IMG/VR virus record: IMGVR_UViG_3300017963_000077
Origin: a virus
Reading direction: 5' to 3' (one strand)
Length of the DNA stretch: 50,736 bases
In this document: piece by piece, positions 1 through 50,736 of the stretch
Layout of the letters: each line of letters begins with the position of its first letter
Position numbering within the stretch: position 1 is the first letter of the stretch
Made by a program: the position numbers and the translations under genes
Notes under the pieces: model-generated
Told to the model about the DNA's origin: nothing
The model's database searches: none
Seen by the model: only the letters and a program-made list of their open reading frames with translations

Positions 1-184
1 ATTCAGAAATGAATAGGTATTCAGAAATGAATAGGTATTCAGAAATGAATAGGTATTCAGAAATGAATAGGTATTCAGAAATGAATAGGTATTCAGAAAT
101 GAATAGGTATTCAGAAATGAATGGGTATTCAGAAATGAATGGGTATTCAGAAAAATGAATGGGTATTCAGAAAAATGAATATTG
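1..184. repeat. Tandem array of 10 direct 18/20-bp units (ATTCAGAAATGAATAGGT; variants ending GGGT; 20-bp variant ATTCAGAAAAATGAATGGGT), iteron-like
   Basis: Units start at 1,19,37,55,73,91,109,127,145,165. Each unit contains the dyad ATTCA-N4/6-TGAAT. The last unit is degenerate and runs into the palindrome AAATGAAT-ATTG-ATTCATTT (173-192). Confidence 0.95.
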
Positions 185-2834: not shown

Positions 2835-3824
2835 ATGGAAAGTCCAAAAAATGCAGCACAAAAAGAAGTTGGTATTGGTAAAATTGAATTGCCAAAAAAT
2901 TTCTTAGGAAAAACTACAGACGAAATTCAAGAACTATTAAGCCAATACGAGCCTCAAATAAGCAATATTTTGTCAACACGAGATGAAGTGAAAAATTTAT
3001 TGCAGGTATGTTCAATTGTGGCAAGAAGTAAAGATGTTGCAAAATGTACCGCATCAACGGTTGTGGGCGCTGTATTACAAACGGCCATGGCAAGACTTGA
3101 TCCAAATCCTATTATGGGTGAAGTATATTTTATTCCTCGTGAAATAAAAAACGGTTCTGGTGTTTATGGGTGCACGCTTACGATAGGGTACAAAGGTTAT
3201 ATTCAATTTGCCGAAAGATCTGGGAAAATCAAAAGTGTTTATTCGTATCCTATTTATTCAGAGGAAATATTTCAAGCGCATTATGGGACAGATTTAAAGA
3301 TTGAACATTTTCCAAAGCCTCCAAAGGACAGGGGTGTTTTAAACGGCGCTTATTCAGTCGTAGAATACATAACTGGAGGTAAAATAATTGAGGTTCTTTA
3401 TAAAGACGAGATTGAAAAAATACGCAAATTGTCACCAGGTAGCCACTCAAAATATAGTCCTTGGGTAAATTTTGAAGCCGACATGTACCGGAAATGTCCA
3501 TTGCGAAAAATAATGAAATATGTTCCGTTAAGTGCAAGAGAAAGAAAAGGTATGTCTGTTGACGATGGAATAGTTGACATTGAAACTACTACATTTCAAA
3601 GTGATGGCGTTGTTAGTGCAGAAGAAATAAATTTCATGACTCCTGAAGATGCTAAAGCACCAATAAAAAATATTAATGAATTATTAATAAAATACGAAAG
3701 CCTTGTCGGCAAACAAAAAATAACTCCAGAACAACAATCAAAGTATGACGCTTTTTTCTCACAAGAAACCATTACACAAGTTGAATACGAAAACATAAAA
3801 AAAGAATTAGATTCTATAAAATAG
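2835..3824 (+). CDS. recT: RecT-family single-strand annealing protein
   Basis: LDPNPIMGEVYFIPR ... TIGYKGYIQFAERSGKI matches RecT core motifs. It is paired with the YqaJ exonuclease. Confidence 0.85.
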   Translation: MESPKNAAQKEVGIGKIELPKNFLGKTTDEIQELLSQYEPQISNILSTRDEVKNLLQVCSIVARSKDVAKCTASTVVGAVLQTAMARLDPNPIMGEVYFIPREIKNGSGVYGCTLTIGYKGYIQFAERSGKIKSVYSYPIYSEEIFQAHYGTDLKIEHFPKPPKDRGVLNGAYSVVEYITGGKIIEVLYKDEIEKIRKLSPGSHSKYSPWVNFEADMYRKCPLRKIMKYVPLSARERKGMSVDDGIVDIETTTFQSDGVVSAEEINFMTPEDAKAPIKNINELLIKYESLVGKQKITPEQQSKYDAFFSQETITQVEYENIKKELDSIK

Positions 3825-3834
3825 GAGAAATTTT

Positions 3835-4104
3835 ATGGACGCAAAAAAAGTATTAAAAACAACAAAGTCAATCCAGTCGTTAAAAAATAAAATTCAATTC
3901 TATTCTATAATGGCTGGAATTATGCAAAAAGCTTGGGAAGGCAGGCGCTTATATATTGTTCCTACATCCTTGGGGGTGTGTTCAGAAACAAATAAACACA
4001 ATCTCAAAGATTTGGGATATCAAATAAGTGAAAACAGGCAAGGCGAAACGATAATTAAGTGGATTAAAGCGCCATATGTAGACAACACGTCAGAAGAGGG
4101 TTAA
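3835..4104 (+). CDS. Hypothetical protein
   Basis: 89-aa ORF with SD AGGAGA upstream. Confidence 0.55.
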   Translation: MDAKKVLKTTKSIQSLKNKIQFYSIMAGIMQKAWEGRRLYIVPTSLGVCSETNKHNLKDLGYQISENRQGETIIKWIKAPYVDNTSEEG

Positions 4105-4106
4105 TA

Positions 4107-4409
4107 ATGAAAAAAACCATATTGTTTATTGAATCAATTTCTGACAATGTATTTTATTATGTTGTAAAGTCAAAAGTGCATGCAGAAGATATATTAGGAG
4201 AAATAATTTTTATATTTAATAATGTGAAAAGAAAAAGGGAATGGATGTTTTTTATTTCAGAACCTGAAATATTGAAACAAGTACAAATGAAGGAAATTTA
4301 TGAAAAATTAAAATCTTTAAATGAAAGTGAAACAACAAACGACATAGCAAAACTTCCAATAGCTTTAATAAAAAAAATAAAAAATAAGGAGTTTAAAAAT
4401 GGAATCTAA
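4107..4409 (+). CDS. Hypothetical protein
   Basis: 100-aa ORF, tightly packed in the operon. Confidence 0.55.
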   Translation: MKKTILFIESISDNVFYYVVKSKVHAEDILGEIIFIFNNVKRKREWMFFISEPEILKQVQMKEIYEKLKSLNESETTNDIAKLPIALIKKIKNKEFKNGI

Positions 4410-5676
4410 AAAAATAATTGGGTTTTATGTTGAAAATTTTATGGGTTGTAAAATAGCTGAATTCACACCTGAAAAAAATATAACAATTGTTTCTGGAGCA
4501 AATGGTCAAGGTAAAAGTTCTTTGATTGACTCAATGTGGTTTTTATTTACAAATTTAAAAGGCTCTTCGATTTCAGAGCCAATTAATTACGATGCCGAAT
4601 ATACCGTTGTGACGGCAGAACTGTCAAATGGTTTTACCATTGACAGAATCCAAAAAAAATCAGGACAAACGTCACTAAAAATTAAATGGGAAGGCGCAAT
4701 TCTGCAAAGTCCGCAAAGTGTTTTAAATAAACTTTTAGGACTAAACATTGACCCAATGGAATTGCTTGAAAAAGAGCCTAAATATCAAGTTGACTATTTA
4801 CTTTCACGATTTGGACTAAAAGATAAATTAAATGAACTTGAATCCAAAAGAATCGATATATATACTAAAAGAAAATATGTAAACAAAGAAATTAAAAATC
4901 TTGAAGTTTTAACTGCAAATGAAATCACAGAACCGGACATCGTAGACAATCAGAAAATTAAAGAAAAATTAAAAAAATTACAGGAAGCAAAATCAACGAG
5001 AGAAAAATCAGAATCCAAAATTAAAGAAATAGAAAATGCAGTAACAGAGTCAGAACAAAAAAAAGAATTTTACAAAAAAGAGATTGAAAAAATTAATGAA
5101 CAAAACGAACAAAGATCAAAAAATCTAATTGAAATACAAGATTCACTTTCAAAAATTCCGTCCCTTGAAAATCTTGAAAGTCAGATAGATGTTGCGTTTG
5201 AAGTGTTAGCAGAAGCGGACGAGACTGCAATGCGCTTGAATCAATACAAAGAATATCAAAAAAACATTAAACTGCTTGAAACAAGAAAAGAGGAAGCGGG
5301 AAAATTAAGTTCTAATCTTTTGAAAATTACAAATGAAAAAATTGGCATATTAGAACAATTAAACTTTGACATTGAAAATTTAGAAATCAAAAATGGGGAA
5401 TTGTTATATAACAATATTCCACTGTCTCAAAGCTCAAGTGCAGAACAATTAAAAGCATGCACGGAAATAGCAATAAAAACAATACCAAAGGATGGATTAA
5501 GAGTTATATTGATTAGAGATGGGAATAGACTTGATTCTAATAATTTTAAAATCCTTGAGGAATTAAGTCGAAAAAACGATGTTCAGATTATAATTGAAAG
5601 AGTTGATGAGACTGGAGAACAAGGTCTTTATATGGAAAATGGTGTTATTAAAAAGAATAATTACAACAAGGAATAA
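4399..5676 (+). CDS. SMC/SbcC/Rad50-like ATPase with central coiled coil
   Basis: Walker A at GANGQGKSSLIDS. Long Lys/Glu-rich coiled coil. Signature-like LSQSSSAEQ and Walker-B-like RVILIRDG near the C-terminus. Confidence 0.7.
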   Translation: MESKKIIGFYVENFMGCKIAEFTPEKNITIVSGANGQGKSSLIDSMWFLFTNLKGSSISEPINYDAEYTVVTAELSNGFTIDRIQKKSGQTSLKIKWEGAILQSPQSVLNKLLGLNIDPMELLEKEPKYQVDYLLSRFGLKDKLNELESKRIDIYTKRKYVNKEIKNLEVLTANEITEPDIVDNQKIKEKLKKLQEAKSTREKSESKIKEIENAVTESEQKKEFYKKEIEKINEQNEQRSKNLIEIQDSLSKIPSLENLESQIDVAFEVLAEADETAMRLNQYKEYQKNIKLLETRKEEAGKLSSNLLKITNEKIGILEQLNFDIENLEIKNGELLYNNIPLSQSSSAEQLKACTEIAIKTIPKDGLRVILIRDGNRLDSNNFKILEELSRKNDVQIIIERVDETGEQGLYMENGVIKKNNYNKE

Positions 5677-10597: not shown

Positions 10598-11182
10598 ATG
10601 TTAACTTTTACGTTTTTAATTATGACCGCTTCTGCTAGTATGACTGGTTGGAATTATATATATATAAATGAATATACTAACACATTGGATTTTATGAGTG
10701 CACACCCACAGATAACTTCAATGGCAGTAGAAGAAAACGGCGGATACACCCAGACTATTAAGGGACTATATTTCACAAATTTTGAGATTGTACCGGGAAA
10801 TTATTTTATTGCTACTAACGCCGATTTTTATTATACAACAAATATCCCAGAAGATAATAAATATATCTCAGCTTACGATAAAGAAGTTGAGGAAAATACA
10901 AAGATATTAACATGGGATTTTTTGAAGCAAGAATTTATTGAGAATTATAATAAAGTGGAAAGAGGTATGCCTTACAAAATAATTAGAACGGATACTTTTT
11001 CCGCATATCCAAATCCATTCAACAATGAAATAAATGTTGATACTGATAAAGTTATTTATGTTTATAATTTGTTAGGCCAAAAAGTGGACCAATTTATGAA
11101 TAGAGGCGGAAAATTATTACCAGCAGGTACATATTTTTTAGTAGCAGGACAAGAAGTCATACAAGTAAAAAAAATAAAGTGA
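10598..11182 (+). CDS. Secreted protein with N-terminal signal peptide and T9SS (Por) C-terminal sorting domain
   Basis: N-terminus is MLTFTFLIMTASASM. C-terminus is YPNPFNNEINV...IYVYNLLGQKV...LPAGTYFLVAG...QVKKIK, matching type A T9SS CTD motifs. Confidence 0.75.
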   Translation: MLTFTFLIMTASASMTGWNYIYINEYTNTLDFMSAHPQITSMAVEENGGYTQTIKGLYFTNFEIVPGNYFIATNADFYYTTNIPEDNKYISAYDKEVEENTKILTWDFLKQEFIENYNKVERGMPYKIIRTDTFSAYPNPFNNEINVDTDKVIYVYNLLGQKVDQFMNRGGKLLPAGTYFLVAGQEVIQVKKIK

Positions 11183-15422: not shown

Positions 15423-15752
15423 TTAATCTTGAAATCTTTTTACAATATAACCAACTAACTCGACTTCAGCGCCATTGTTTAACTCTAATAAAAAAGAAAC
15501 TGTATACTGTGTAAAACTGCTTGTAATGGATATCAGGTTTCCTTGTATGTTCAATTCACTTTCAGTGTTATTAATATCTGATTGCTTTGAAAATACAATC
15601 CTGATTCCATTGTCCGTTGTCGTTATAAGTTTTAAATTATCAGATTCATAATATTCTGGTTCTGTATAATTTTTACCTAAAACAAAAACATCTACATTAT
15701 AACCTTTTAACAACTTTTTTAAGTTTCTAAGTTCTTCATTTGCTTTTTTCAT
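15423..15752 (-). CDS. Hypothetical protein (first gene of the promoter-copy-B operon)
   Basis: Start taken at MKKANEEL, preceded by AAGGAGAAATAAAATG. The 13-aa extension in the ORF track is the translated duplicated leader. Confidence 0.6.
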   Translation of the reverse strand: MKKANEELRNLKKLLKGYNVDVFVLGKNYTEPEYYESDNLKLITTTDNGIRIVFSKQSDINNTESELNIQGNLISITSSFTQYTVSFLLELNNGAEVELVGYIVKRFQD

Positions 15753-15859
15753 TTTATTTCTCCTTTTTTGTTTGTGTAAGTAAGTAACCAAATATAATAT
15801 TTTATATTATATTTGTCAAGGACTTTTTGCATTATTTTAACTTTTTTTTATTGTTTGTT
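15745..15859 (-). repeat. 115-bp duplicated promoter/operator/5' leader, copy B
   Basis: Identical to 18460-18574 except for one mismatch (15829 G vs 18544 A). Confidence 0.95.
15791..15819 (-). promoter_or_regulatory. Promoter TTGACA-17nt-TATATT with overlapping 10-bp inverted repeat (copy B)
   Basis: On the minus strand, TTGACA is at 15819-15814 and TATATT at 15796-15791. The palindrome AAATATAATA-TTTTA-TATTATATTT spans 15790-15814. The -10 region also reads TAtaTTTG. Confidence 0.6.
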
Positions 15860-16090: not shown

Positions 16091-17173
16091 TTAATTAATA
16101 TTGTTTAAGTTATTCCAGTGTTTTTCAGATACATCAATAAATTTTCCGGCTTTTCGCTCAAGCTCAATTCTGCGATCATAACTTCTCACTGATTGGGCCG
16201 TTTGTGTTAGTGCTTGTGATGTTCCATATTGTGAATAATCACCTTCGGAAAGAAAATTTTCAAGGTATGTATTTTTTTCATTTTTCCCTAAATTAAAGTT
16301 ATCCGCGACAACTTCACAAAATTTAACTTTGTCTTTTGCGGTCACTTTTCTTTCGGCAGAAATTTCAAGGCGATTACATTCATTTCTGAACCAGTCTGGA
16401 TTAAAGAAAGTTCCCAGAATTATATCTTTCATTTGCATTGTAACAGTTTTCATCATTTGAATTTGTGTAGCTTGTCTATAGTGTTCATTGTCTTCATCAA
16501 TATTGCCGCCAACATGGTATTTTCTATATACGTCGGCAGATATCATTCCATTTTTACATACTTGCCGCCAAATAAAAGGTTCTATTCGAACACTTCCGGC
16601 GCCAACTTCGGAATTGCTTAAAATGATTCCGGGAAAAACTCTATCGTTTGCTTTTACCGAAGTATTTATTATTTCATCTCTTGATCTGTCAATCAACTTT
16701 ATATACATTTTTTTTTCTGTTAGTGAGCAATCTTTAGTTTCAATGTCCAGTCCGGTATCAACAAGGTTGTCTTTAATAATCAAAAGCAATGAATTTAAAA
16801 CATTTTCGTTATCAATTTTTTGATACCGTTTTGATAAAAATGCTCTCGCTGTTCCGTTTATTGTTCTTATATATCTTTTGTTGTCGTCAAGAGCTAAAAA
16901 AGTGTTTACTGTTATTTGATACAGATCAGGGTACTCATTTCGTAGTCTGTCATAATACTGCTTGGGTATTTTGTATGCTGATGAGATTTGTTGGTTAAAA
17001 TGATCATTCATGTCAAACATTGTTTGTGATGAGTCGTCAATATTAAGTTTGTTGTTTCTGTCAATCCACACGCTTGATGGAGTGACTGCATAATCTTTTT
17101 TGTTTTTACTCTGAACTTTTACAAGTTCTGCGACTTCTCTAAAATCTGAATTTGTTTTTGTTGTTAATTCCAT
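16091..17173 (-). CDS. DUF932-like phage/plasmid protein
   Basis: 360 aa. ILSNSEVGAGSVRIEPFIWRQVCKNGMI resembles the conserved NS-x-DGS...R-x-VC-x-NG core of DUF932. Confidence 0.55.
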   Translation of the reverse strand: MELTTKTNSDFREVAELVKVQSKNKKDYAVTPSSVWIDRNNKLNIDDSSQTMFDMNDHFNQQISSAYKIPKQYYDRLRNEYPDLYQITVNTFLALDDNKRYIRTINGTARAFLSKRYQKIDNENVLNSLLLIIKDNLVDTGLDIETKDCSLTEKKMYIKLIDRSRDEIINTSVKANDRVFPGIILSNSEVGAGSVRIEPFIWRQVCKNGMISADVYRKYHVGGNIDEDNEHYRQATQIQMMKTVTMQMKDIILGTFFNPDWFRNECNRLEISAERKVTAKDKVKFCEVVADNFNLGKNEKNTYLENFLSEGDYSQYGTSQALTQTAQSVRSYDRRIELERKAGKFIDVSEKHWNNLNNIN

Positions 17174-17828: not shown

Positions 17829-18467
17829 TTATATTACAAAAGTGCCTTTGAAAGAAATATTAATAATTTGATCTAAATGAAAGGATCTTATTCCGTTATA
17901 AATATCTTTTACGATTAGCAAAGTTGGATCAGTATTTACTTTATCGGTTTTCTTTTCATATTTAAATTTTTTCAAACAAAACATTTTGCGGATTGTTCCG
18001 TCTTTTTTCTTAAATTCAACATGAACAATTTTTCCGTTTGAATATTCAAATATTTTTTGTGCAATATCGCAAGTGTCAAAGTCTTTATACTTAAAATTTA
18101 CAAAAGGCATCTCTTCTGTGATTAATAAAGAATGTAAGTGGTTTCCGAACTCTGATAAAATTTCAATAGCCTGGGCAACAAGGTTTTTTTCATAAAATTG
18201 GGTTGTAAAAGTTTCAAAATCCGAACAAATCGAAAAACTCGTTTCATCAAGAACAAGTTCAAATGTTTCTGTAACAGCAATAGTCTCATAATCAACTTCC
18301 GGGTTGCTTTGATTTGCAAATGCCGGAAAATCATTATAATCGTAAGAAACAGTTAAAAACAGTTGATCTTGTTCTATACTTTCATAAAGTTCAACATCGG
18401 CGTCGCCATAGAAAAAACCGTCTCTAATTTCTTTTTCCAAAACATCTTTAATAGTTAACTTTTTCAT
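17829..18467 (-). CDS. Acidic N-terminal domain + DUF2693-like C-terminal domain protein (first gene of the promoter-copy-A operon)
   Basis: Start at MKKLTIKD behind AAGGAGAAATAAAATG. C-terminal VHVEFKKKDGTIRKMFC...LLIVKDIYNGIRSFHLDQIINI resembles the (T/E)F-KKDG-x-R...W/Y-x-x-x-x-x-RSF-x-LD pattern recalled for DUF2693. Confidence 0.55.
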   Translation of the reverse strand: MKKLTIKDVLEKEIRDGFFYGDADVELYESIEQDQLFLTVSYDYNDFPAFANQSNPEVDYETIAVTETFELVLDETSFSICSDFETFTTQFYEKNLVAQAIEILSEFGNHLHSLLITEEMPFVNFKYKDFDTCDIAQKIFEYSNGKIVHVEFKKKDGTIRKMFCLKKFKYEKKTDKVNTDPTLLIVKDIYNGIRSFHLDQIINISFKGTFVI

Positions 18468-18574
18468 TTTATTTCTCCTTTTTTGTTTGTGTAAGTAAGT
18501 AACCAAATATAATATTTTATATTATATTTGTCAAGGACTTTTTACATTATTTTAACTTTTTTTTATTGTTTGTT
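18460..18574 (-). repeat. 115-bp duplicated promoter/operator/5' leader, copy A
   Basis: 114/115 identical to 15745-15859. Confidence 0.95.
18506..18534 (-). promoter_or_regulatory. Promoter TTGACA-17nt-TATATT with overlapping 10-bp inverted repeat (copy A)
   Basis: Same sequence as copy B, offset by 2715 nt. Palindrome at 18505-18529. Confidence 0.6.
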
Positions 18575-18617: not shown

Positions 18618-18687
18618 CTTTTATCTATTGTTTTTTGTGAAAATATAAATAAAGAAATTTTGAACGGAATAATATTAAAAAAAAATA

Positions 18688-18716
18688 TTGAAACCTTTGT
18701 AGGCAAGGCATATATA
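18688..18716 (+). promoter_or_regulatory. Second promoter-like site TTGAAA-17nt-TATATA abutting the TTG start at 18718
   Basis: TTGAAA at 18688-18693 and TATATA at 18711-18716. If it is used, the transcript would be nearly leaderless. Confidence 0.3.
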
Positions 18717-18717
18717 A

Positions 18718-19575
18718 TTGAATCCTAAATATCCGATTTATATTATTTCAAAAGGGCGCTGGAAAGATAGATTGACAAGCAAAGCCCTTGAAAAAACAAA
18801 TGTTCCGTATAGGATAGTGGTTGAGCAGCAAGAATACGAACAATATGCACAAGTTATTGATGGAAAAAAAATTCTTGTTTTGCCATTCTCAAATTTAGGA
18901 AAAGGCAGTATTCCTGCAAGAAATTGGGTTTGGGAGCACTCAATTAAAGAAGGACATAAAAAACATTGGATATTAGACGACAATATAAGAGAATTTTACA
19001 GATACAACAACAATCAAAAAATCAGACTTGCCGATGGCACTGGGTTTAAAATAATTGAGGATTTTGTAGACAGGTTTAATAATGTCCCAATGGCGGGAAT
19101 GAATTATGAATCATTAGTTCCCAGAAGGCAAAAACACCCACCTTTTCATTTAAACACGCGGATTTATTCTTGCATTTTATTGTCCAATGAAATAGGCCAT
19201 GTTATTAAATGGCGTGGCCGATACAATGAAGACACTGATTTATCGCTTAGATTTTTAAAATTTGGTTATTGTACTATATTATTTAATATTATTCTTGCAA
19301 AAAAAATTGCAACAATGTTAATGAAGGGTGGAAATACAGACGAATTATATAAACAAAATTCTGACTTTGATGGCCGTTTAGAAATGGCTAAATCTTTACA
19401 AAGACAGCACCCAGACGTTGCTAAAATCACATGGAAGTGGGGGCGATGGCAGCATCAAGTAAACTATAAGCCATTCAAAAACAATAAACTTAAATTAAAA
19501 GAAAATGTTGAGATTCCAAAAGGGATTAATAATTATGGTATGGTATTAAAAAAAATTGATCGTAAAAAAGACTGA
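18718..19575 (+). CDS. GT-A-like nucleotide-sugar transferase candidate, paralog 1 (TTG start)
   Basis: 285 aa. YIISKGRW, HWILDDNI (DxD-like) and RGRYNEDTDLSLR (ED.DL..R, as in GT2/GT-A). An in-frame TAA at 18715-18717 forces the TTG start. The N-terminus is conserved with the paralog at 21684..22592. Confidence 0.55.
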   Translation: MNPKYPIYIISKGRWKDRLTSKALEKTNVPYRIVVEQQEYEQYAQVIDGKKILVLPFSNLGKGSIPARNWVWEHSIKEGHKKHWILDDNIREFYRYNNNQKIRLADGTGFKIIEDFVDRFNNVPMAGMNYESLVPRRQKHPPFHLNTRIYSCILLSNEIGHVIKWRGRYNEDTDLSLRFLKFGYCTILFNIILAKKIATMLMKGGNTDELYKQNSDFDGRLEMAKSLQRQHPDVAKITWKWGRWQHQVNYKPFKNNKLKLKENVEIPKGINNYGMVLKKIDRKKD

Positions 19576-19592
19576 AAAATAATGGTAAGAAA

Positions 19593-20258
19593 ATGAAAAT
19601 AGAATTAAAAGATTATCCAAACAATCCCCGGACTATTAGCGATGACGCCTTAAGCAAACTCGGAAAATCCATGCAAGAGTTTGGCGACCTGTCTGGGATA
19701 GTCTTAAACAAAAAAGACGGATATTTAATATCTGGCCACCAAAGAGTTAAATCACTTTTAGAACGTTACGGCAAATATGATATTGACATAGTCGAAATGC
19801 TCCCGGATGGTGAACAAAGGGGTTATGTGGAGCCGGAACACATATCTTTTAGATTAGTCGACTGGGATGAAGGTAAAGCCGGAGCAGCACGATTAGCCGC
19901 AAATAAACATGGCGGCGAATGGGAGCAAGACAAACTCGAAAAAGAATTAAAGAAACTAATTGACCTTGATATTGATATGGATTTGAGCGGGTTTGATGAT
20001 GATGAAATAAATATTGATACAAATTTTGATAATAAAGAAATAGCTCATAAAACTTTACAAGAGAGGTTTTTAATTCCCCCGTTTTCTGTTTTAGATGCAC
20101 GTCAAGGTTATTGGCAAGAACGTAAAAGGGCCTGGATTGCATTGGGAATAAAAGGTGAAGAAGGCAGGAAGGGGGACATTTTAATTAATGCGGAACAATT
20201 GACAACGGAAAATCTGAATTATTATCGAAACAAAAAAAACAGGCATAATCGGAGGTAG
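19593..20258 (+). CDS. ParB/Srx N-terminal-domain protein carrying the N-terminal part of a ParB-methylase fusion
   Basis: NPRTISDDALSKLGKSMQEFGDLSGIVLN..GYLISGHQRV is the ParB-like box. The C-terminal PPFSVLDARQGYWQERKRAWIALGIKGEEGR is, from memory, the linker normally continuous with a methylase domain. Confidence 0.7.
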   Translation: MKIELKDYPNNPRTISDDALSKLGKSMQEFGDLSGIVLNKKDGYLISGHQRVKSLLERYGKYDIDIVEMLPDGEQRGYVEPEHISFRLVDWDEGKAGAARLAANKHGGEWEQDKLEKELKKLIDLDIDMDLSGFDDDEINIDTNFDNKEIAHKTLQERFLIPPFSVLDARQGYWQERKRAWIALGIKGEEGRKGDILINAEQLTTENLNYYRNKKNRHNRR

Positions 20259-20284
20259 TCCCTTACCAATGGATAGAGGTTGGC

Positions 20285-21046
20285 ATGGGTAAAAACGCAA
20301 GAACATGCGGACAGGATTTAATGAAAGGTGAAAACATGACGGCTGGCACTTCAATATTTGACCCCGTTCTTTGTGAAATTATATATAAATGGTTTTGTCC
20401 TGACAACGGACATATATTAGACCCGTTTGCGGGTGGTTCTGTAAGAGGTATTGTGTCCAATTATTTAGGCTATAAATATACCGGTGTTGAATTAAGCCCT
20501 GATCAAGTGGATGCAAACATAAAACAGGCAGAAGACATTATACCAGTTAATAAACCTACATGGGTGCTCGGTGATTCTGTAAATATAAAACAATTAGTAA
20601 AAGGTGAATTTGATTTAATATTTAGTTGCCCACCATATTTTGATTTAGAAATTTATTCTGACAACAAACAAGATTTATCTAATTATGAAACGTATGAAGA
20701 TTTTATTAAGGCTTATAAACAAATAATTCAAGATAGTGTGTTTCTATTAAAAGAAGATAGATTCGCTTGTTTTGTAGTTGGAGACATACGAGACAAGAAA
20801 GGATTTTATAGAAATTTTGTAACCGACACTATAAACGCTTTTAATAAATCAGGCTGTTTATTATATAATGAGGCTATACTTGTGACGAAAGTTGGCTCTT
20901 TACCTATAAGGGCCGGGATATACTTTCAAAGTGGCAGAAAATTAGGGAAAACACATCAAAATGTTTTAGTGTTTTATAAAGGCAATCCTAAAAACATAAA
21001 AGAAAATTTTAGTGAAATTGAAATAAGTGATAAATTATTAAATTAA
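20285..21046 (+). CDS. SAM-dependent DNA methyltransferase (N6-adenine / N4-cytosine class)
   Basis: TSIFDPVLCEIIYKWF..GHILDPFAGGSVRG is motif I. FSCPPYFDLE is the (S/D/N)PPY-type motif IV. Confidence 0.75.
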   Translation: MGKNARTCGQDLMKGENMTAGTSIFDPVLCEIIYKWFCPDNGHILDPFAGGSVRGIVSNYLGYKYTGVELSPDQVDANIKQAEDIIPVNKPTWVLGDSVNIKQLVKGEFDLIFSCPPYFDLEIYSDNKQDLSNYETYEDFIKAYKQIIQDSVFLLKEDRFACFVVGDIRDKKGFYRNFVTDTINAFNKSGCLLYNEAILVTKVGSLPIRAGIYFQSGRKLGKTHQNVLVFYKGNPKNIKENFSEIEISDKLLN

Positions 21047-21082
21047 TAAAGTCAATACAATAAAAAATAATGGTGTCTGAAA

Positions 21083-21715
21083 ATGAAAATAAAATTAAAA
21101 GATTATCCAAACAATCCCAGGACTATTAGCGATGATGCCTTAAGCAGACTTGGAAAATCTATGCAAGAGTTTGGCGACCTGTCCGGGATAGTATTAAACA
21201 AAAGAGACGGATATTTAATATCTGGCCATCAAAGAGTTAAATCTTTAATTGAACGTTACGGCAAATATGATATTGACATAGTCGAAACACTCCCGGACGG
21301 TGAACAAAGAGGCCACGTAGAACCTGAACATATATCTTTTAGGTTAGTCGACTGGGACGAAGGCAAGGCTGGAGCAGCACGATTAGCCGCAAACAAGCAA
21401 GGCGGCGAGTGGGTGCAGGATAAACTTGATGATGAATTGCAGAAACTAATCGACCTTGATATTGATATGGACTTGACTGGGTTTGAGGAGTCACAAGAAG
21501 TTGATTATGAAGAAATGTGGCAAGGTATGCCTGAATATAACAATGAAGACAAAACAAGTTTTAGGCATATAACGGTACATTTTAGAAATCATGAAGATGC
21601 TTTTGATTTTGGAAAATTAATCGGACAAAAAATAACGGAAAGCACAAGGTCTCTTTGGCACCCCAAGATAGATATTGAAACTTATGCAGACAAGGTGTAT
21701 ACAAGTGAATCCTAA
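21083..21715 (+). CDS. ParB/Srx N-terminal-domain protein, paralog 2, with a different C-terminal domain
   Basis: The first ~133 aa differ from 19593..20258 at about 12 positions. The C-terminus is MPEYNNEDKTSFRHITVHFRNHEDAFDFGKLIGQKITESTRSLWHP. Confidence 0.7.
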   Translation: MKIKLKDYPNNPRTISDDALSRLGKSMQEFGDLSGIVLNKRDGYLISGHQRVKSLIERYGKYDIDIVETLPDGEQRGHVEPEHISFRLVDWDEGKAGAARLAANKQGGEWVQDKLDDELQKLIDLDIDMDLTGFEESQEVDYEEMWQGMPEYNNEDKTSFRHITVHFRNHEDAFDFGKLIGQKITESTRSLWHPKIDIETYADKVYTSES

Positions 21716-22592
21716 ATATCCATTATATATTGTATCGAAAGGTCGCTGGAAAAGTAGATTAACAAGTAAGGCATTAGAACAAATGAAAGTGCCTTACTAT
21801 ATAGTGATTGAAGAACAGGAGTATAAAAAGTATTCTTCAGTTATTGATAAAAAGAAAATTTTAATACTTGATAAAAAATATCAAGACGAATATGATACTT
21901 TTGATAAATTGGGAGACTCGAAAAGCAAGGGCCCTGGGCCTGCAAGGAATTTTGTATGGGAGCACTCAATAAAAAATGGCAATAAATGGCATTGGGTAAT
22001 GGATGATAATATTGCTCGCTTTTTTCGCTATAACAACAATCTTAAGGTCCCCGTTACTAACGGGACATTATTCAAATGTATGGAAGATTTTGTCTCAAGA
22101 TATACAAACATAGCAATGGCTGGCCCAAATTATTTTATGTTTGTATCACGTAAAAGTAAAATGCCACCAATTGTATTAAATACAAGAATTTATTCATGTA
22201 ATTTAATTCGCAATGATGCCCCTTTTCGATGGAGGGGACGTTATAATGAAGATACTGATCTATCGTTGAGAATGTTAAAGGCTGGTTGGTGTACGGCACA
22301 GTTTAATGCTTTTTTACAGGAAAAAATAACAACTCAATATCTTAAGGGCGGGAATACTAAAGAATTTTATATCAAAGAGGGAACTTTACCTAAATCACAA
22401 ATGCAAGTCGCTATGCATCCAGATGTATCAAAAATAGTATGGAGATTTGGACGGTGGCATCACTATGTAGATTACAGGCCATTTAAAAACAACAAACTCA
22501 AATTAAAAGAAAATGTTGAGATTCCAAAGGGGATTAATAATTACGGAATGGTTTTAAAACAAGTCAATACAATGAAAAAGAAAAGACTGTAA
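21684..22592 (+). CDS. GT-A-like nucleotide-sugar transferase candidate, paralog 2 (start 21675 TTG, 21684 ATG or 21705 GTG)
   Basis: YIVSKGRW, HWVMDDNI and RGRYNEDTDLSLR are conserved with paralog 1. The last 27 aa block PFKNNKLKLKENVEIPKGINNYGMVLK is identical. The 5' end overlaps the ParB paralog 2 stop. Confidence 0.55.
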   Translation: MQTRCIQVNPKYPLYIVSKGRWKSRLTSKALEQMKVPYYIVIEEQEYKKYSSVIDKKKILILDKKYQDEYDTFDKLGDSKSKGPGPARNFVWEHSIKNGNKWHWVMDDNIARFFRYNNNLKVPVTNGTLFKCMEDFVSRYTNIAMAGPNYFMFVSRKSKMPPIVLNTRIYSCNLIRNDAPFRWRGRYNEDTDLSLRMLKAGWCTAQFNAFLQEKITTQYLKGGNTKEFYIKEGTLPKSQMQVAMHPDVSKIVWRFGRWHHYVDYRPFKNNKLKLKENVEIPKGINNYGMVLKQVNTMKKKRL

Positions 22593-22648: not shown

Positions 22649-23119
22649 ATGTCAAGACCTCACGGTAAAAGTGAAAAAGAAAAATTAAAGCTTAAGATAT
22701 CAGAGTTATATTTGAAGGGATACCGGCAGAATACAATCTGTAATAAATTAGAAATTTCCCAAACAACTGTTTCAAAATATTTAAAAGAAGCGATTAATGA
22801 TTGGAAGCTTGAATCTTTAAATAATATAGATGAAAAAATTGAAGCAGAGCTGGCAAGAATAAACATGCTGGAAGTTACTGCATGGGAGTCGTTTCAAAGA
22901 TCGACCGAAAATAAACAAAAAACAGTCAGGCGGCAAAAAAGAACACAAAGAGGCGAAGAGACAGACGGCTCAATTCAAGAGGAACAATTAATTGGTGATC
23001 CGAGATTCTTGTCAATTATACAATGGTGTATTACTAAAAGAGTAGAGTTGATGGGGTTAATAATGCCGCAGGAGAACAAACATGTTGTAATTATAGCGCC
23101 TGAAAAAAATGATGAATAA
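22649..23119 (+). CDS. terS: Terminase small subunit candidate (HTH)
   Basis: 156 aa directly upstream of and overlapping terL. HTH at ICNKLEISQTTVSKYLKEA. Confidence 0.55.
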   Translation: MSRPHGKSEKEKLKLKISELYLKGYRQNTICNKLEISQTTVSKYLKEAINDWKLESLNNIDEKIEAELARINMLEVTAWESFQRSTENKQKTVRRQKRTQRGEETDGSIQEEQLIGDPRFLSIIQWCITKRVELMGLIMPQENKHVVIIAPEKNDE

Positions 23120-24386
23120 ATTCTGGATTAAAAATTTAATAAATCCAAAGCCGGTCGTGACATTACAAGGCTATCCGCAAAGTTTTCACTCTAAACATTT
23201 TATTCCCTTGTTAGAAAACAAAGCAAGAATATTGTTACTAATGGGAGGCGCAGGTTCCGGAAAGTCCAGATTTTGTGCTTTAAAAGTATTACATAGAATT
23301 ATATTTGAACAAGAAGGTCAAAGGATATTACTTGTCAGAAAAATTCATAAAAATATACGGCGGTCGTCATGGCAATTAATCAATGACATTATATATTCGT
23401 GGCACTTACGAGATTATTTTACGATTAATAAATCAGAAATGTCGTTGACTTACGAGCCAAACGGAAACCAAATAATTTCTGCAGGAATGGACGATCCTGA
23501 AAAAATAAAAAGTATTGAAAGAATTACGAGCATATGGGCAGAAGAGGCGACAGAACTTACAAGAGACGACTTTATACAACTTGATATAAGAATGCGCGGT
23601 AAGCATCTTGGAATATATAAGCAAATTTTAGCATCGTTTAATCCTATTTCTAAATATCATTGGATTAATGAAGATTTTTTTATTGACAACAAAATATGGG
23701 ACGATTATACAATAAATGTTTCAACGGTCGATAACAATGAATTTATTGATTCTGAATATAAAAAACGTTTAGAATCTTTGAAGCGCATAGATATCAACAA
23801 ATATAATATTTATAGGAATGCCGTTTGGGGGGAATTGCAAGATCAAATATTTTCAAACTTTACATATATTGACAAGTGGGCACCAAAGGGGGAGAAAATT
23901 TATGGATTAGATTTCGGGTTTGTTAATCCGTCTGCATTAATTGAAATTCATGTTAATGAAAATGATATATACATCAGGGAATTGATTTATGAATCTGGAT
24001 TAAAAAATCGGGATTTAATCCGTAAAATGAAGTGGCTTAAAATTAGCAATCAAAAATATATATATGCAGACGCCGCAGAGCCTAACAGGATTGAAGAAAT
24101 ACAAGCCGAAGGTTATAATATACACCCGGCTAAAAAAGATATAATAGCAGGTATCGATTATGTCAAAAGCTTAAATCTGTTAATTGATAGCGAAAGCGTG
24201 AACATCAAAAAAGAAGTTGAAAATTATTCATATAAAAAAGATAAAAATGGAAAGAAATTAGAAGAGCCGGTTAAAGTCTTTGATCACGCAATGGACGCCA
24301 TACGCTATGCTTTATATACTTACTATATGGAAAACCTGGGCTTTGAAGATTATTCCAATTGGGTTGGTTCAGTAATAGAGGATTGA
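23109..24386 (+). CDS. terL: Terminase large subunit (PBSX-like family)
   Basis: Walker A at LLMGGAGSGKS, Walker B-like SIWAEEATE, nuclease-domain GLDFGFVNPSAL ... DHAMDAIRYAL. Confidence 0.9.
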   Translation: MMNKFWIKNLINPKPVVTLQGYPQSFHSKHFIPLLENKARILLLMGGAGSGKSRFCALKVLHRIIFEQEGQRILLVRKIHKNIRRSSWQLINDIIYSWHLRDYFTINKSEMSLTYEPNGNQIISAGMDDPEKIKSIERITSIWAEEATELTRDDFIQLDIRMRGKHLGIYKQILASFNPISKYHWINEDFFIDNKIWDDYTINVSTVDNNEFIDSEYKKRLESLKRIDINKYNIYRNAVWGELQDQIFSNFTYIDKWAPKGEKIYGLDFGFVNPSALIEIHVNENDIYIRELIYESGLKNRDLIRKMKWLKISNQKYIYADAAEPNRIEEIQAEGYNIHPAKKDIIAGIDYVKSLNLLIDSESVNIKKEVENYSYKKDKNGKKLEEPVKVFDHAMDAIRYALYTYYMENLGFEDYSNWVGSVIED

Positions 24387-28345: not shown

Positions 28346-28831
28346 ATGAAATTAAATTTAGGCTGCGGGGAAAATAAAATAGCGGGGTTTATAAATGTTG
28401 ATATAAGAAAAGAAGTAAATCCAGACCAAGTTTGTGATATCAGGAAACTTGAATTTGTAGAAGATAGTTCATGCGAGACAATATATGCGAGCCACGTACT
28501 TGAACACTTTCCAGAATGGCAAGTCAGGCCTATTTTGTATGAATGGAAAAGTAAATTGCAAGAAAGTGGACAGTTAATTCTGGTATTACCAGACTTTGAA
28601 GAAACTTGCAAATATTGTGGAATGGCGTTTGAGTCAAAGCAATATCATAAAGTAAATAGGCATGTTGGAAGCATTTTGGGAAATCAAGATTATCCACAAA
28701 ACTTTCATTTTACTTTGTTTTGGGACAAAAAGATTATTTCGATTCTTAAGGAAGTGGGATTCAGAGCTCCTTTTTGTGAAAAAAAATATATCGATACTTA
28801 CTATTGTTTATATGCAAAAGGAATGAAATGA
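28346..28831 (+). CDS. Class I SAM-dependent methyltransferase (Methyltransf_11-like)
   Basis: MKLNLGCGENKIAGFINVD ... IYASHVLEHF ... GQLILVLPD. Confidence 0.8.
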   Translation: MKLNLGCGENKIAGFINVDIRKEVNPDQVCDIRKLEFVEDSSCETIYASHVLEHFPEWQVRPILYEWKSKLQESGQLILVLPDFEETCKYCGMAFESKQYHKVNRHVGSILGNQDYPQNFHFTLFWDKKIISILKEVGFRAPFCEKKYIDTYYCLYAKGMK

Positions 28832-28987: not shown

Positions 28988-29908
28988 ATGTATTTTATTT
29001 GTAAGGAATGTAAAAGGCAAATTTCTATAATGAAATATGATGTTCCTTTTTGGGAAAAGCTCGGCTTTGTGTGCCACAATTGTTATACAATAGTTTCATC
29101 ACACACAAGGAATCCAAAATTAGAAAACAAAACAACAGTTTTCACGGTATCTGGAAAAGCGCTGGGTGATTTCATTAACTTTACAAGTATTAAAAATTAT
29201 TATCCTCAAGATAATCCTGATGAAAAAGTAATATTTTTAACCGACTGGCTGAGTTACGACGATATAATAAGAATATACAATCCCGGAAAAATATTTTGGT
29301 CTAATATTGCTGCTGATCCATATGACTGCTTAACTGACAGATATATCGTTATGAACAAGGAAAAAGCTTACTGGTACAATATGATGAATGAAGTTAGAAA
29401 TTATGCTTCTCAAAATAGATTCCCAATATTGCCATTCCCAATAAGTATTAATCCTTGTATGATACCTAAAGAAAAATATTTTGTAGTTCACTTTAGAAAT
29501 ATTCATGACATTAAAAAGGGCACTGATAAAAATATTAATAAATTTCAAGCTAAAGAAATTATGGATATTTGTTTGTCAACTGGCGCAACATTCGTTTTAA
29601 TTGGAAATGATGAAATATATGATGAAGAGTTATTGGAATGGTGTAACGATAAAGTATTAAACTTAAAACACAAATTAACACTGTCACAAATAAGATATGT
29701 TATAAAACACGCTCAGGGATATGTTGGCTCAGATTCTGGCTTGGCACACCTTGCCGGGACAGTTAATCAAGATATATTTTTATTTAATCAAGTAATAGGC
29801 TGGGAGCCTGTCACAATTAATTCAGATGTTCAGGGGCTACAAAAGCGAGAAATGACGCAGGAAAATATCAACACTTATTTAACTAAATTTATTAAAAATA
29901 GAATGTAA
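28988..29908 (+). CDS. GT9-like (heptosyltransferase-type) glycosyltransferase with N-terminal zinc ribbon
   Basis: CKEC...CHNC at the N-terminus. The C-terminal LTLSQIRYVIKHAQGYVGSDSGLAHLAG matches the GT9 DSG-x-x-HLA motif. Confidence 0.6.
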   Translation: MYFICKECKRQISIMKYDVPFWEKLGFVCHNCYTIVSSHTRNPKLENKTTVFTVSGKALGDFINFTSIKNYYPQDNPDEKVIFLTDWLSYDDIIRIYNPGKIFWSNIAADPYDCLTDRYIVMNKEKAYWYNMMNEVRNYASQNRFPILPFPISINPCMIPKEKYFVVHFRNIHDIKKGTDKNINKFQAKEIMDICLSTGATFVLIGNDEIYDEELLEWCNDKVLNLKHKLTLSQIRYVIKHAQGYVGSDSGLAHLAGTVNQDIFLFNQVIGWEPVTINSDVQGLQKREMTQENINTYLTKFIKNRM

Positions 29909-46750: not shown

Positions 46751-48046
46751 ATGAAAAAAATAATAACAATATGGATTCTGCTTGTAATAAGTATATTTTA
46801 TTTATATGCCCAACAGGTAATACAATACCGGTCGCAAAGATTTGATTTATCAATTTTAGTAGACGATACAACTTTTGTGGCAGACTCCACGACTTATTTA
46901 TTTAAGGACGGCTCAAATAATTTAAAATTTGTTGATGCAGTAGTAGGCGCAAAAACACTAACAGAACTATCAACGACAACACTTGATTCCGATTTTGTAA
47001 GTTTCACGTCAGACACCTTTTATATAAATGATACAAACACAAAGGTAACAGAGGACGGCTCAAATAATTTAATTTTTGTTGATGCTGTTACGGGAACTAA
47101 GACACTCGCAGAACTATCAACGACAACACTTGATTCCGATTTTGTTTCTTTTACAAGTGATACTTTTTATATAAACGACACTAACACAAAGGTAACAGAA
47201 GACGGCTCAAATAATTTAATTTTTGTTGATGCTGTTACAGGAACTAAGACTTTGGCAGAGCTGACAGCGACAACATCACTTGACTCCGATTTTGTAAGTT
47301 TTACAAGCGACACATTTTATATAAATGATACTAATACCAAAATCACTGAAGACGGTTCAAACAATTTAATTTTTGTTGACGCTGTGACAGGAACTAAGAC
47401 ACTCGCAGAACTATCCGCGGGTGGTAGTGCAGATAGTTCTTTTAAAAAAATAACAGCTGATACAGTGGGAGCAATTGATGACACAACAGTAACTTTTATA
47501 AATCATATAGCATTAACAGACGATAAAAATATTATATTGCAAGACAGTTCTACGGTCTGGCAGGTATTAACGTGTAATTTTCCGTATGGATGGTCAACTG
47601 GTCCAGATTGGGCGACAAGTTACGGTGGGTGGCTTTTTGCAAGCTCAGGAACAGAACAAGTATTTTTTAATTTTAGGCTTCCTGAAACTTGGAAAGAAGG
47701 CTCTACTATTTATCCAATGATTGGGTGGCAAGCCGCCGTCACAAGTACAGGTGACGCCTATTGGAGATTTGCTTACCGTTGGGTGGACATAGATTCAACA
47801 GAAGAAGGGACTTTAACAAATTTAGATATTTTAACGGCAGGGACAGGGACAGCATTTGTTCACCAAGAAGCTTTATTTGCCGGTATTTCTGGAACAGGCA
47901 AACATGTCGGAAGCAACATTAGTGGAATATTGGCAAGACTCGGAAGTGAAGGAGACGACGATCTAGCTGGAGATGCGCTGTTGAAAACTATTAATATAAT
48001 TATCGAATGCGACAGATATGCGGCATCTGGAGCAAGAGAAAAATAA
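46751..48046 (+). CDS. Tail fibre / receptor-binding candidate with N-terminal hydrophobic signal-like segment and 49-aa tandem repeats
   Basis: N-terminus is MKKIITIWILLVISIFYLYAQQ. About 3.4 copies of DGSNNLIFVDAVTGTKTLAELSTTTLDSDFVSFTSDTFYINDTNTKVTE. Confidence 0.55.
   Translation: MKKIITIWILLVISIFYLYAQQVIQYRSQRFDLSILVDDTTFVADSTTYLFKDGSNNLKFVDAVVGAKTLTELSTTTLDSDFVSFTSDTFYINDTNTKVTEDGSNNLIFVDAVTGTKTLAELSTTTLDSDFVSFTSDTFYINDTNTKVTEDGSNNLIFVDAVTGTKTLAELTATTSLDSDFVSFTSDTFYINDTNTKITEDGSNNLIFVDAVTGTKTLAELSAGGSADSSFKKITADTVGAIDDTTVTFINHIALTDDKNIILQDSSTVWQVLTCNFPYGWSTGPDWATSYGGWLFASSGTEQVFFNFRLPETWKEGSTIYPMIGWQAAVTSTGDAYWRFAYRWVDIDSTEEGTLTNLDILTAGTGTAFVHQEALFAGISGTGKHVGSNISGILARLGSEGDDDLAGDALLKTINIIIECDRYAASGAREK
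46907..47413 (+). repeat. In-frame tandem repeat, period 147 bp (one unit 150 bp), about 3.4 copies
   Basis: The GACGG(C/T)TCAAA(T/C)AATTTAA motif recurs at 46907, 47054, 47201 and 47351. Confidence 0.9.
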
Positions 48047-50604: not shown

Positions 50605-50736
50605 GTATTCAGAAATGAATGGGTATTCAGAAATGAATAGGTATTCAGAAATGAATAGGTATTCAGAAATGAATAGGTATTCAGAAATGAATAGGTATTC
50701 AGAAATGAATAGGTATTCAGAAATGAATAGGTATTC
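50593..50736. repeat. Tandem 18-bp repeat array at the right end of the window (partial unit + 7 units + ATTC)
   Basis: Full units start at 50607 (GGGT variant), 50625, 50643, 50661, 50679, 50697 and 50715. 50625-50736 is identical to 1-112. Confidence 0.95.

Follow-up and report, generated by a model that had tools for sequence, protein, structure and literature searches.

Glycosyltransferases of the TAGT family (TET-Associated Glycosyltransferase, Pfam PF20691) include the beta-glucosyl-HMC-alpha-glucosyltransferase (HMC, hydroxymethylcytosine) of phages T2 and T6; they have a GT-A fold and are sister to GT2 (PMC13216743). Phage GT-A enzymes of this kind glycosylate 5-hydroxymethylcytosine (5hmC) in DNA (bioRxiv 10.1101/2023.12.21.572611). 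TET/5mYOX-associated GT-A glycosyltransferases have been described from gene clusters of phage metaviromes (Iyer et al. 2013, as cited in PMC8056088; Burke et al. 2021, PMC8256090), the phage GT-A enzymes reportedly have their closest structural relative in the trypanosome base J glucosyltransferase (JGT), and ParB-like proteins activate phage thymine dioxygenases on double-stranded DNA (PMC13229309). Solitary TAGTs are a recognised loose end: they are recorded in 288 of 753 phage genomes (PMC13216743), and according to the literature about 65% of the glycosyltransferase contigs have no 5mYOX or ThyS neighbour. Here we describe a locus with two TAGT genes in the IMG/VR virus record IMGVR_UViG_3300017963_000077, a stretch of 50,736 nucleotides (nt) that we call the window; all positions refer to the whole stretch and, unless marked otherwise, to its + strand. 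The main result is that TAGT is linked, here and in related loci of phages and bacteria, to a conserved domain of about 70 residues that we call X. In the window X forms the C-terminal end of a ParB-like protein, ParB2, and ParB2 together with the transferase TAGT2 probably constitutes a split, ParB-tethered DNA glycosyltransferase.

An exact 112-bp direct repeat at the two ends of the window (1-112 = 50625-50736) shows it to be a complete, circularly assembled genome of ~50,624 bp (~50.6 kb). As a sequence-only reading of this DNA had proposed, five co-directional genes on the + strand lie directly upstream of the terminase genes, which come next (Table 1). One coordinate in that reading requires correction: the fifth open reading frame (ORF) starts at 21675 (305 amino acids, aa) or at 21705 (295 aa) and ends at 22592, and does not start at 21684; the database copy of this protein, P0001, has 295 aa. 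The motifs listed earlier are present in both transferases (SKGRW at residue 11, W(I/V)(L/M)DDNI at residues 87 and 100, RGRYNEDTD at residues 166 and 177), GHQR is found at residue 48 of both ParB-like proteins, and the methylase has SCPPY at residue 115. Both paralogies are also real. The two transferases are 59% identical with an expected value (E) of 9e-120, far above chance, and the N-terminal domains of the two ParB-like proteins are 88% identical over 138 aa (90% over 300 nt of DNA).

Table 1. Features of the glycosyltransferase locus and its immediate surroundings in the window.
Feature	Position	Length	Strand	Matches and remarks
TAnnTTTG box palindromic pair	18504..18530		.	divergent gap upstream of TAGT1; Bacteroidota-type -7 consensus
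X-tail remnant	18684..18728	14 codons + stop	+	NIETFVGKAYIIES and stop; aligns with the end of ParB2, DIETYADKVYTSES and stop
TAGT1	18718..19575	285 aa	+	PF20691 E 4e-44; phrog_842; TTG start; 'short-loop' clade; no X partner
ParB1 (ORF2)	19593..20258	221 aa	+	phrog_498 E 1e-34; phrog_620 E 4e-32; phrog_12517 positions 26-68
Methylase (ORF3)	20285..21046	253 aa	+	PF01555 E 3e-14; phrog_12517 E 3e-93
ParB2 N-domain (ParB/Srx-like)	21083..21487		+	phrog_620 E 7e-29; 88% identity to ParB1; GHQR residue 48
Domain X, C-terminal part of ParB2	21488..21715	~70 aa	+	W-x-G-M-P-E-Y ... F ... F-x-x-L-x-x-Q ... W-x-P
TAGT2	21705..22592	295 aa	+	PF20691 E 6e-44; GTG start; 'long-loop' clade
terS	22649-23119		+	conserved downstream context of the cassette, outside the enzyme
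terL	23109-24386		+	Terminase_3, E 6e-45

The locus resembles each of the described systems in part. With the TET/5mYOX-associated TAGTs it shares the Pfam family, the GT-A fold, the R...DD(D/N)...ED motifs and the neighbourhood themes of ParB, methyltransferases and terminase. It differs from them in that no C5-methylase, TET/5mYOX or ThyA homolog was found in the complete genome by Pfam and PHROG scans, which covered all ORFs of at least 90 aa in the window except two of 1482 and 1002 aa in the tail region. It differs also in the additional domain X, for which we found no description in the literature searched; the enzyme is split here, with X on the ParB-like protein. The T2/T6 enzyme belongs to the same Pfam family (PMC13216743), and RefSeq and PHROG name homologs of the present transferases after it. 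That enzyme adds glucose to a glucose borne by 5hmC and needs gene 42, gene 56 and the alpha-glucosyltransferase (alpha-GT), none of which was found here: the window has no thymidylate-synthase-family match and no GT-B alpha/beta-GT match in the Pfam and PHROG scans. A T-even-type homolog in BFVD, from Klebsiella phage PKO111 (278 aa), is too short for an N-terminal extension of the size of X. The 5mYOX176/ParB176 pair (PMC13229309) would be alike in that a post-replicative phage DNA-modifying enzyme has a ParB-like protein as its dedicated partner, with an N-domain of the NTP-binding type and without a classical DNA-binding domain. In the window, however, the partner enzyme is a glycosyltransferase and not a dioxygenase, no dioxygenase having been found there by the Pfam and PHROG scans, and ParB2 has X directly after its N-domain, where proteins of the ParB176 type have a linker and a C-terminal dimerisation domain. 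JGT, a eukaryotic enzyme, is likewise a GT-A DNA glycosyltransferase whose step follows that of a hydroxylase; its substrate is 5-hydroxymethyluracil (5hmU) made by JBP1/2.

The two proteins of ~290 aa had been proposed to be GT-A transferases, and their assignment to the DNA-modifying family within that fold class is well founded. They match PF20691 over the full length of the model with 151.4 and 150.9 bits, against a cutoff of 27.5 bits, and phrog_842 with E values of 1e-41 and 1e-51. The structural comparison suggested earlier was made with an AlphaFold2 model of P0071, a natural X-TAGT fusion that is 72% identical to TAGT2 (predicted local distance difference test, pLDDT, 89.9; predicted template modelling score, pTM, 0.88). 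The best Foldseek matches of this model in the PDB are all GT-A enzymes (ColGalT1, LARGE1, POMGnT1, GnT-I and ppGalNAc-Ts; E 2e-5 to 1e-3) and its best matches in the viral database BFVD are TAGT-domain proteins, so that the predicted structure shows a GT-A fold for the transferases. The active-site motifs R ... DD(D/N) ... ED, as defined elsewhere (bioRxiv 10.1101/2023.12.21.572611), appear as SKGRW, DDNI and RGRYNEDTD in both TAGTs and are invariant across their respective clades. TAGT2 retains 84 of 84 clade-invariant residues and TAGT1 85 of the 88 of its own clade. Judged by this conservation, the catalytic motifs are shown to be intact and apparently under purifying selection.

The evidence for X comes from a comparison of 161 related loci, 85 viral ones with a TAGT2-like gene and 76 of the TAGT1 clade, and of 80 further loci in bacterial genomes. 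In 82 of the 85 TAGT2-type loci the ORF directly upstream of the TAGT start, and overlapping it, matches ParB2 (whole ORF 21083-21715, 210 aa); the other three loci are cut by a contig end. In all 82 informative loci the matching part is the C-terminal ~70 residues of ParB2, that is, X. The geometry in the window is the same, with the ParB2 stop and the TAGT2 start overlapping by 11 nt. X also precedes TAGT in nearly all of the 76 TAGT1-clade loci and adjoins it in 71 of the 80 bacterial ones. Among the latter are chromosomes of bacteria in culture, namely Pantoea stewartii ATCC 8199 (NZ_CP046558.1, near 3,605,430-3,606,281), Erwinia, Pseudescherichia, Chryseobacterium (with C. gambrini DSM 18014), Rhodovulum and Marivivens. 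X and TAGT are fused in frame in Aeromonas phage Aeh1, Tenacibaculum phage PTm1, Vibrio phages Kuja (two copies), 1.076.O and 1.124.O, and Paraglaciecola GD1, as well as in the metagenomic homologs P0071, P0054 and P0108. In Vibrio phage henriette X is a separate ORF, and X is linked to TAGT in every cultured phage examined. The genomic linkage of X and TAGT is thus shown to be obligate, and X is a conserved partner or adaptor of TAGT.

These comparisons also refine what can be said about ParB. A ParB-like module is indeed linked with the transferase, as in the ParB2-TAGT2 pair, but the true partner is domain X of ParB2 and not the ParB N-domain. About 40% of the TAGT partners are standalone X proteins of ~80 aa; the remainder have a longer region ahead of X, which in most of them matches the ParB N-domain, and about half of all X partners are ParB_N-X fusions. 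No single-chain ParB_N-X-TAGT protein was seen among 120 listed homologs of ParB2, in a word-index-limited search that does not show such proteins to be absent.

Domain X is present once in the window, in ParB2 (E 8e-30), and is marked by invariant W, M-P, F, F and W-x-P residues. It has no sequence match in Pfam, PHROG or PDB and no fold relative in the PDB. With a threshold of E<=1e-3 an exhaustive profile search collected 3,343 representative clusters, and with E<=1e-10 it collected 2,465; among the matches listed, X is mostly at the C-terminal end of the polypeptide or directly before a glycosyltransferase-sized region. X was also considered as a linker domain within ParB-methyltransferase fusions. 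This was dropped, since the X profile has no match in such fusions (Javan100, Lachnospiraceae ParB-methylases) or in the PaBG ParB. In the P0071 model the X region has pLDDT values of 90-97, and X is therefore predicted to be an integral part of the enzyme in this fusion. The last strand of X (residues 79-83) lies just before the first strand of the transferase (94-97) and may pair with the core sheet of TAGT.

Two variations on X were noted in passing. Tandem double X domains occur either alone or before a glycosyltransferase-sized region (P0361, P0363-P0365, P0362, P0403 and P0404; L089, from PTm1). In three JGI contigs (L003, L004 and L005) the ParB_N-X ORF ends in mid-X after '...VVHFKS' and a separate 36-aa ORF precedes TAGT; X may be split or frameshifted in these loci.

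The cassette appears to be mobile and to have a preferred site. It is found on unrelated phage backbones of 29% to 66% GC, with 61-78% identity within the cassette itself, and its hosts span many phyla. Of the 63 loci with at least 3 kb of downstream sequence, 49 have terL downstream of the cassette on the same strand, 33 of them within 1.5 kb. All-against-all clustering of the neighbouring genes, made for the 85 and then for all 161 loci, gave only TAGT, X and terminase as frequent families, and no other gene of the window accompanies the cassette in related loci. A third conserved cassette gene was sought among these loci and in the genomes of Vibrio phages 1.124.O and 1.076.O, and was not found. 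The X-TAGT unit is the sole thing that the window has in common with these two genomes (~48 kb, deposited as partial).

In eight loci a sugar-nucleotide epimerase/dehydratase resembling UDP-xylose synthase (UXS) adjoins a fused X-TAGT, which fits a transferase that uses nucleotide sugars. The gene at 3815-4747 of locus L145 and those of seven other loci encode this NAD-dependent epimerase/dehydratase directly upstream of the fused X-TAGT; the likeness to UDP-xylose synthase was judged from the N-terminal GxxGxxG motif and the overall sequence. Some cassettes may thus bring their own sugar-nucleotide tailoring enzyme.

In our best reading, the packaging and late genes are headed by a DNA-modification island made up of two ParB-tethered enzymes, each of two polypeptides, and an extra transferase. 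ParB1 and ORF3 are a split copy of the widespread phage ParB-(N6A/N4C) DNA methyltransferase, and ParB2 and TAGT2 would be a split three-domain glycosyltransferase. In the latter, the GT-A core of TAGT2 would bind a host nucleotide sugar through the DDN and ED motifs, with host UDP-sugars as donors. ParB2 would supply X in trans, and X would dock on the TAGT2 core as in the single-chain X-TAGT proteins, its last strand extending the core beta-sheet. The ParB/Srx N-domain would load or hold the enzyme on the double-stranded DNA of the phage after replication and before or during packaging. Tethering by ParB is suggested by analogy with the ParB-activated thymine dioxygenases (PMC13229309), with the ParB-methylase fusions, and with an earlier suggestion that ParB directs the modification machinery during packaging (PMC8256090). 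TAGT1 may borrow the X of ParB2 or work without X, and it could add a second sugar or serve a different site. As to timing, the replication genes in the window comprise YqaJ/RecT, SbcCD-like proteins and a replication initiator, and the Pfam and PHROG scans found no phage DNA polymerase there. We infer that the phage replicates with host enzymes and canonical deoxynucleoside triphosphates; therefore any modification must be post-replicative.

Several results weigh against a DNA glycosyltransferase at this locus. To our knowledge, every characterised DNA glycosyltransferase requires a pre-existing hydroxyl, be it on 5hmC, 5hmU, 5-hydroxycytosine (5hoC) or a sugar. Pfam and PHROG scans of the complete genome found none of the enzymes that could belong to such a pathway (TET/JBP, ThyA-like, C5-methylase, alpha/beta-GT). 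A hidden dioxygenase or ThyA homolog was sought, and the scans gave no hint of either even when Pfam was searched at E<=10 with ten unannotated early ORFs. No dioxygenase or thymidylate-synthase family recurs in the 161 related loci, and no precursor enzyme is annotated in Vibrio phages 1.124.O and 1.076.O. Aeromonas phages Aeh1 and 65 are without T4 genes 42 and 56 (PMC2993671), and a survey lists the Aeh1 enzyme as one that 'presumably modifies DNA, unknown base' (PMC8056088). The ParB part of the argument has a weak point of its own. Neither ParB1 nor ParB2 matches Pfam PF02195 (ParB_N), the assignment to the ParB fold being based on profiles, and the best PDB matches of the ParB2 AlphaFold2 model (pLDDT 88.4; N-domain 90-97) are ParB, Noc, KorB and Spo0J but with weak E values of 0.03-0.1. 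Equivalent partner proteins in other loci (L001, L003, P0261, P0270 and P0298) do carry PF02195, and we treat the N-domains of ParB1 and ParB2 as presumably divergent ParB/Srx N-domains. Because no precursor enzyme was found, the case for DNA as the substrate would follow from family precedent and the ParB fusion, and not from a reconstructed pathway. The acceptors that remain are a hydroxylated pyrimidine made by an unrecognised enzyme, an atom of canonical DNA, a DNA end, or a target other than DNA.

The first of these corresponds to the classical pathway, in which an unrecognisably divergent enzyme of phage or host would make a hydroxymethyl- or hydroxy-pyrimidine and the TAGTs would O-glycosylate it, as with the TET-associated TAGTs. 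We consider this possible, at a low probability. By precedent, TAGTs O-glycosylate either 5hmC or a sugar (PMC13216743; bioRxiv 10.1101/2023.12.21.572611), thousands of phage 5mYOX contigs are reported to have no Pfam TET_JBP annotation (PNAS 2026 paper), and about half of the ORFs in the early region of the window are without annotation. Such a pathway must be reconciled, however, with the negative permissive scans of those ORFs and with the lack of any third gene family co-occurring with the cassette in 161 loci. Nor do the window and the two partial Vibrio phage genomes share anything beyond X-TAGT, and an enzyme common to hosts of so many phyla is unlikely. As tentative is the proposal that X-TAGT, whether or not a ParB N-domain goes with it, is self-contained and adds sugar to DNA bearing no prior hydroxymethyl or hydroxy group, either at an atom of a canonical base or at a deoxyribose hydroxyl of the ends made by the adjacent terminase.

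A non-DNA acceptor, such as a small molecule or a protein of phage or host origin, with ParB_N-X as a merely localising or regulatory subunit, is rather unlikely. It would explain why the genome has no acceptor-making enzyme in the Pfam and PHROG scans, and GT-A enzymes do glycosylate proteins elsewhere; the top PDB matches of the P0071 model are protein O-glycosyltransferases. On the other hand, the characterised family members act on DNA (T2/T6, PMC13216743) and the phage GT-A enzymes that were tested glycosylate 5hmC (bioRxiv 10.1101/2023.12.21.572611). About half of the X partners also have a ParB/Srx N-domain, a module otherwise seen in phages as a fusion to DNA methylases, and the cassette adjoins a DNA methylase here and terminase genes generally. 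In the Pfam and PHROG scans the TAGTs have no signature typical of envelope glycosyltransferases. The sequence-only reading had offered envelope glycans as its own alternative target, and this we judge unlikely.

The methylase belongs to a different enzyme. ParB1 combines a ParB/Srx-like N-domain (residues 1 to ~138) with what is otherwise the N-terminal segment of a methyltransferase family (LIPPFSVLD..., from residue 160). By its PF01555 match and its motifs (motif I DPFAGG at residue 46, motif IV SCPPY) ORF3 is an S-adenosylmethionine-dependent DNA methyltransferase of the N6-adenine/N4-cytosine type; its nearest PDB entry is 2zie. The family phrog_12517 is matched in its N-terminal region by the C-terminal part of ParB1 and in the remainder by ORF3. 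In the same way, residues 11-209 of ORF2 align with residues 17-205 of gp77 of Listeria phage B054 (445 aa) and residues 1-247 of ORF3 with its residues 187-431, the latter at 47% identity. DPFAGG and (S/T)CPPY are conserved with the gp77 family, for which the (S/T)CPPY form of motif IV is typical. These alignments show ParB1 and ORF3 to be one split enzyme of the common phage ParB-methyltransferase type (phrog_498; B054 gp77), colinear with gp77 and sharing its motifs I and IV. Unlike gp77, it is encoded by two ORFs that lie in different frames. The family is also split in Microcystis phage Mae-JY30, at the same point; this recurrence argues for the split as a natural arrangement. We also considered a slip at an A8 run (about 20225-20235), which was rejected, as the stop of the downstream frame lies past the run and a slip cannot restore one ORF. 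A further difference from gp77 is that the N-domain of ParB1 is 88% identical to that of ParB2, the partner of the neighbouring glycosyltransferase. The methylase accompanies the TAGT2-type cassette in one of the 85 loci, and the second set of 76 loci contains one weak match, several kb from TAGT; thus the methylase does not travel with the X-TAGT cassette.

A ParB + glycosyltransferase pairing had been thought to be present twice in the window. ParB1 is instead part of the methyltransferase, and TAGT1 has no partner, only the remnant of 14 codons at its start. The remnant overlaps the TAGT1 start by 11 nt, exactly as the ParB2 stop overlaps TAGT2, and the DNA repeat D2 begins 40 nt upstream of TAGT1. 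The genome thus has one TAGT of each clade and a single X, and TAGT1 is, as far as the sequence allows, an intact enzyme of the second clade that has lost its own X. A possible micro-ORF of 22 codons with a TTG start (18660-18728, LNGIILKKNIETFVGKAYIIES and stop) overlaps the TAGT1 start and corresponds to the tail strand of X only; its product may work as a mini-partner, or the ORF may be no more than a remnant.

We also considered TAGT1 as a decaying copy of TAGT2, which was first hinted at by the retention of 67 of the 84 TAGT2-clade invariant residues and by a 13-aa loop deletion. This was overturned, as TAGT1 belongs to a separate clade with members up to 68% identical to it, in which the short loop is typical and of whose invariant residues it keeps 85 of 88. 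A broader version, in which TAGT1 (without X, with a TTG start) and the split methylase are both pseudogenes in a partly decayed locus, is improbable. The X partner of TAGT1 has in fact been lost and the methylase is interrupted relative to B054 gp77. Against decay, all catalytic motifs of TAGT1 are kept together with its clade-invariant residues, and X-less second TAGTs recur in tandem arrays: one X is followed by two tandem TAGTs in several short-loop-clade loci (L120, L126, L104, L143 and L144). The methylase is split independently in Mae-JY30, and both of its halves are intact ORFs. Last, the sequential scheme of the sequence-only reading, in which the methylase installs a base modification that the TAGTs then glycosylate and the two flanking ParB-transferase pairs act as one system, is very improbable. 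The close spacing and common orientation of the genes and the near-identity of the ParB N-domains speak for it, but PF01555 with motif IV CPPY is an amino-methyltransferase family whose N-methyl groups provide no hydroxyl, the methylase is almost never found with the cassette, and ParB1 is the N-terminal half of the methylase itself.

Several features of the surrounding genome deserve mention. The palindromic pair of TAnnTTTG boxes upstream of TAGT1 is a candidate bidirectional promoter for the module, as a lead only; the count of this motif across the whole window is not above chance. The palindrome, with its two facing TATATTTG boxes, occurs twice (15789-15815 and 18504-18530), and the ORFs that start beside the two copies, 15423-15791(-) and 17829-18506(-), have an identical N-terminus of 16 residues, MVTYLHKQKRRNKMKK. 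This looks like a duplicated bidirectional promoter and leader cassette. The minus-strand block adjoining the module encodes a DUF932 protein of 360 aa (16091-17173; E 4e-10; phrog_1362 E 2e-44). An ORF of 194 aa at 10598-11182 has a C-terminal Por_Secre_tail domain (type IX secretion sorting, E 4e-5), which suggests that the host is probably a member of the Bacteroidota and that its type IX secretion system exports this phage protein. A small ORF resembling S-adenosylmethionine-dependent methyltransferases (28346-28831; phrog_6636/5399, E ~4e-6) and a GT-B heptosyltransferase-like ORF (28988-29908; Glyco_transf_9 E 1e-7, TIGR02193 E 8e-6) lie together between a MuF-like head gene and genes annotated as protease and capsid, an odd site for a second sugar-related pair; the pair was not found in the cassette-bearing loci. 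Finally, an ORF of 431 aa (46751-48046) contains about three tandem repeats of ~45 aa (...TLDSDFVSFTSDTFYINDTNTKVTEDGSNNLIFVDAVTGTKTLAEL...), seen in translation only, and is likely to be a tail-fibre or receptor-binding protein.

The earlier remark that this arrangement is not a system that can be named was overstated, as TAGT, the ParB-methyltransferase family and the presence of ParB in phage hypermodification clusters are already known (PMC13216743, PMC8256090, PMC13229309). Four points are new relative to the literature found: X is a universal module of TAGT; the enzyme can be split between ParB_N-X and TAGT; the cassette is autonomous and mobile, with a fixed position ahead of the terminase genes; and a complete genome is documented without a known acceptor-making step. 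The locus turns the loose end of the solitary TAGTs into a defined and testable unit, composed of X and TAGT and often of a ParB N-domain. The cassette is present in cultured phages and in the chromosomes of cultured bacteria, and the question is therefore open to direct experiment. If the acceptor is a hydroxymethyl-pyrimidine, a hydroxylase is still to be found. If it is not, the cassette would represent a new DNA chemistry, with a bearing on restriction evasion and on the sequencing of environmental phage DNA; direct glycosylation, if true, would be an undescribed kind of DNA glycosylation spread over the phages of many bacterial phyla. ParB-like proteins have begun to be recognised as partners of DNA-modifying dioxygenases and methylases, and the present finding would add glycosyltransferases to these.

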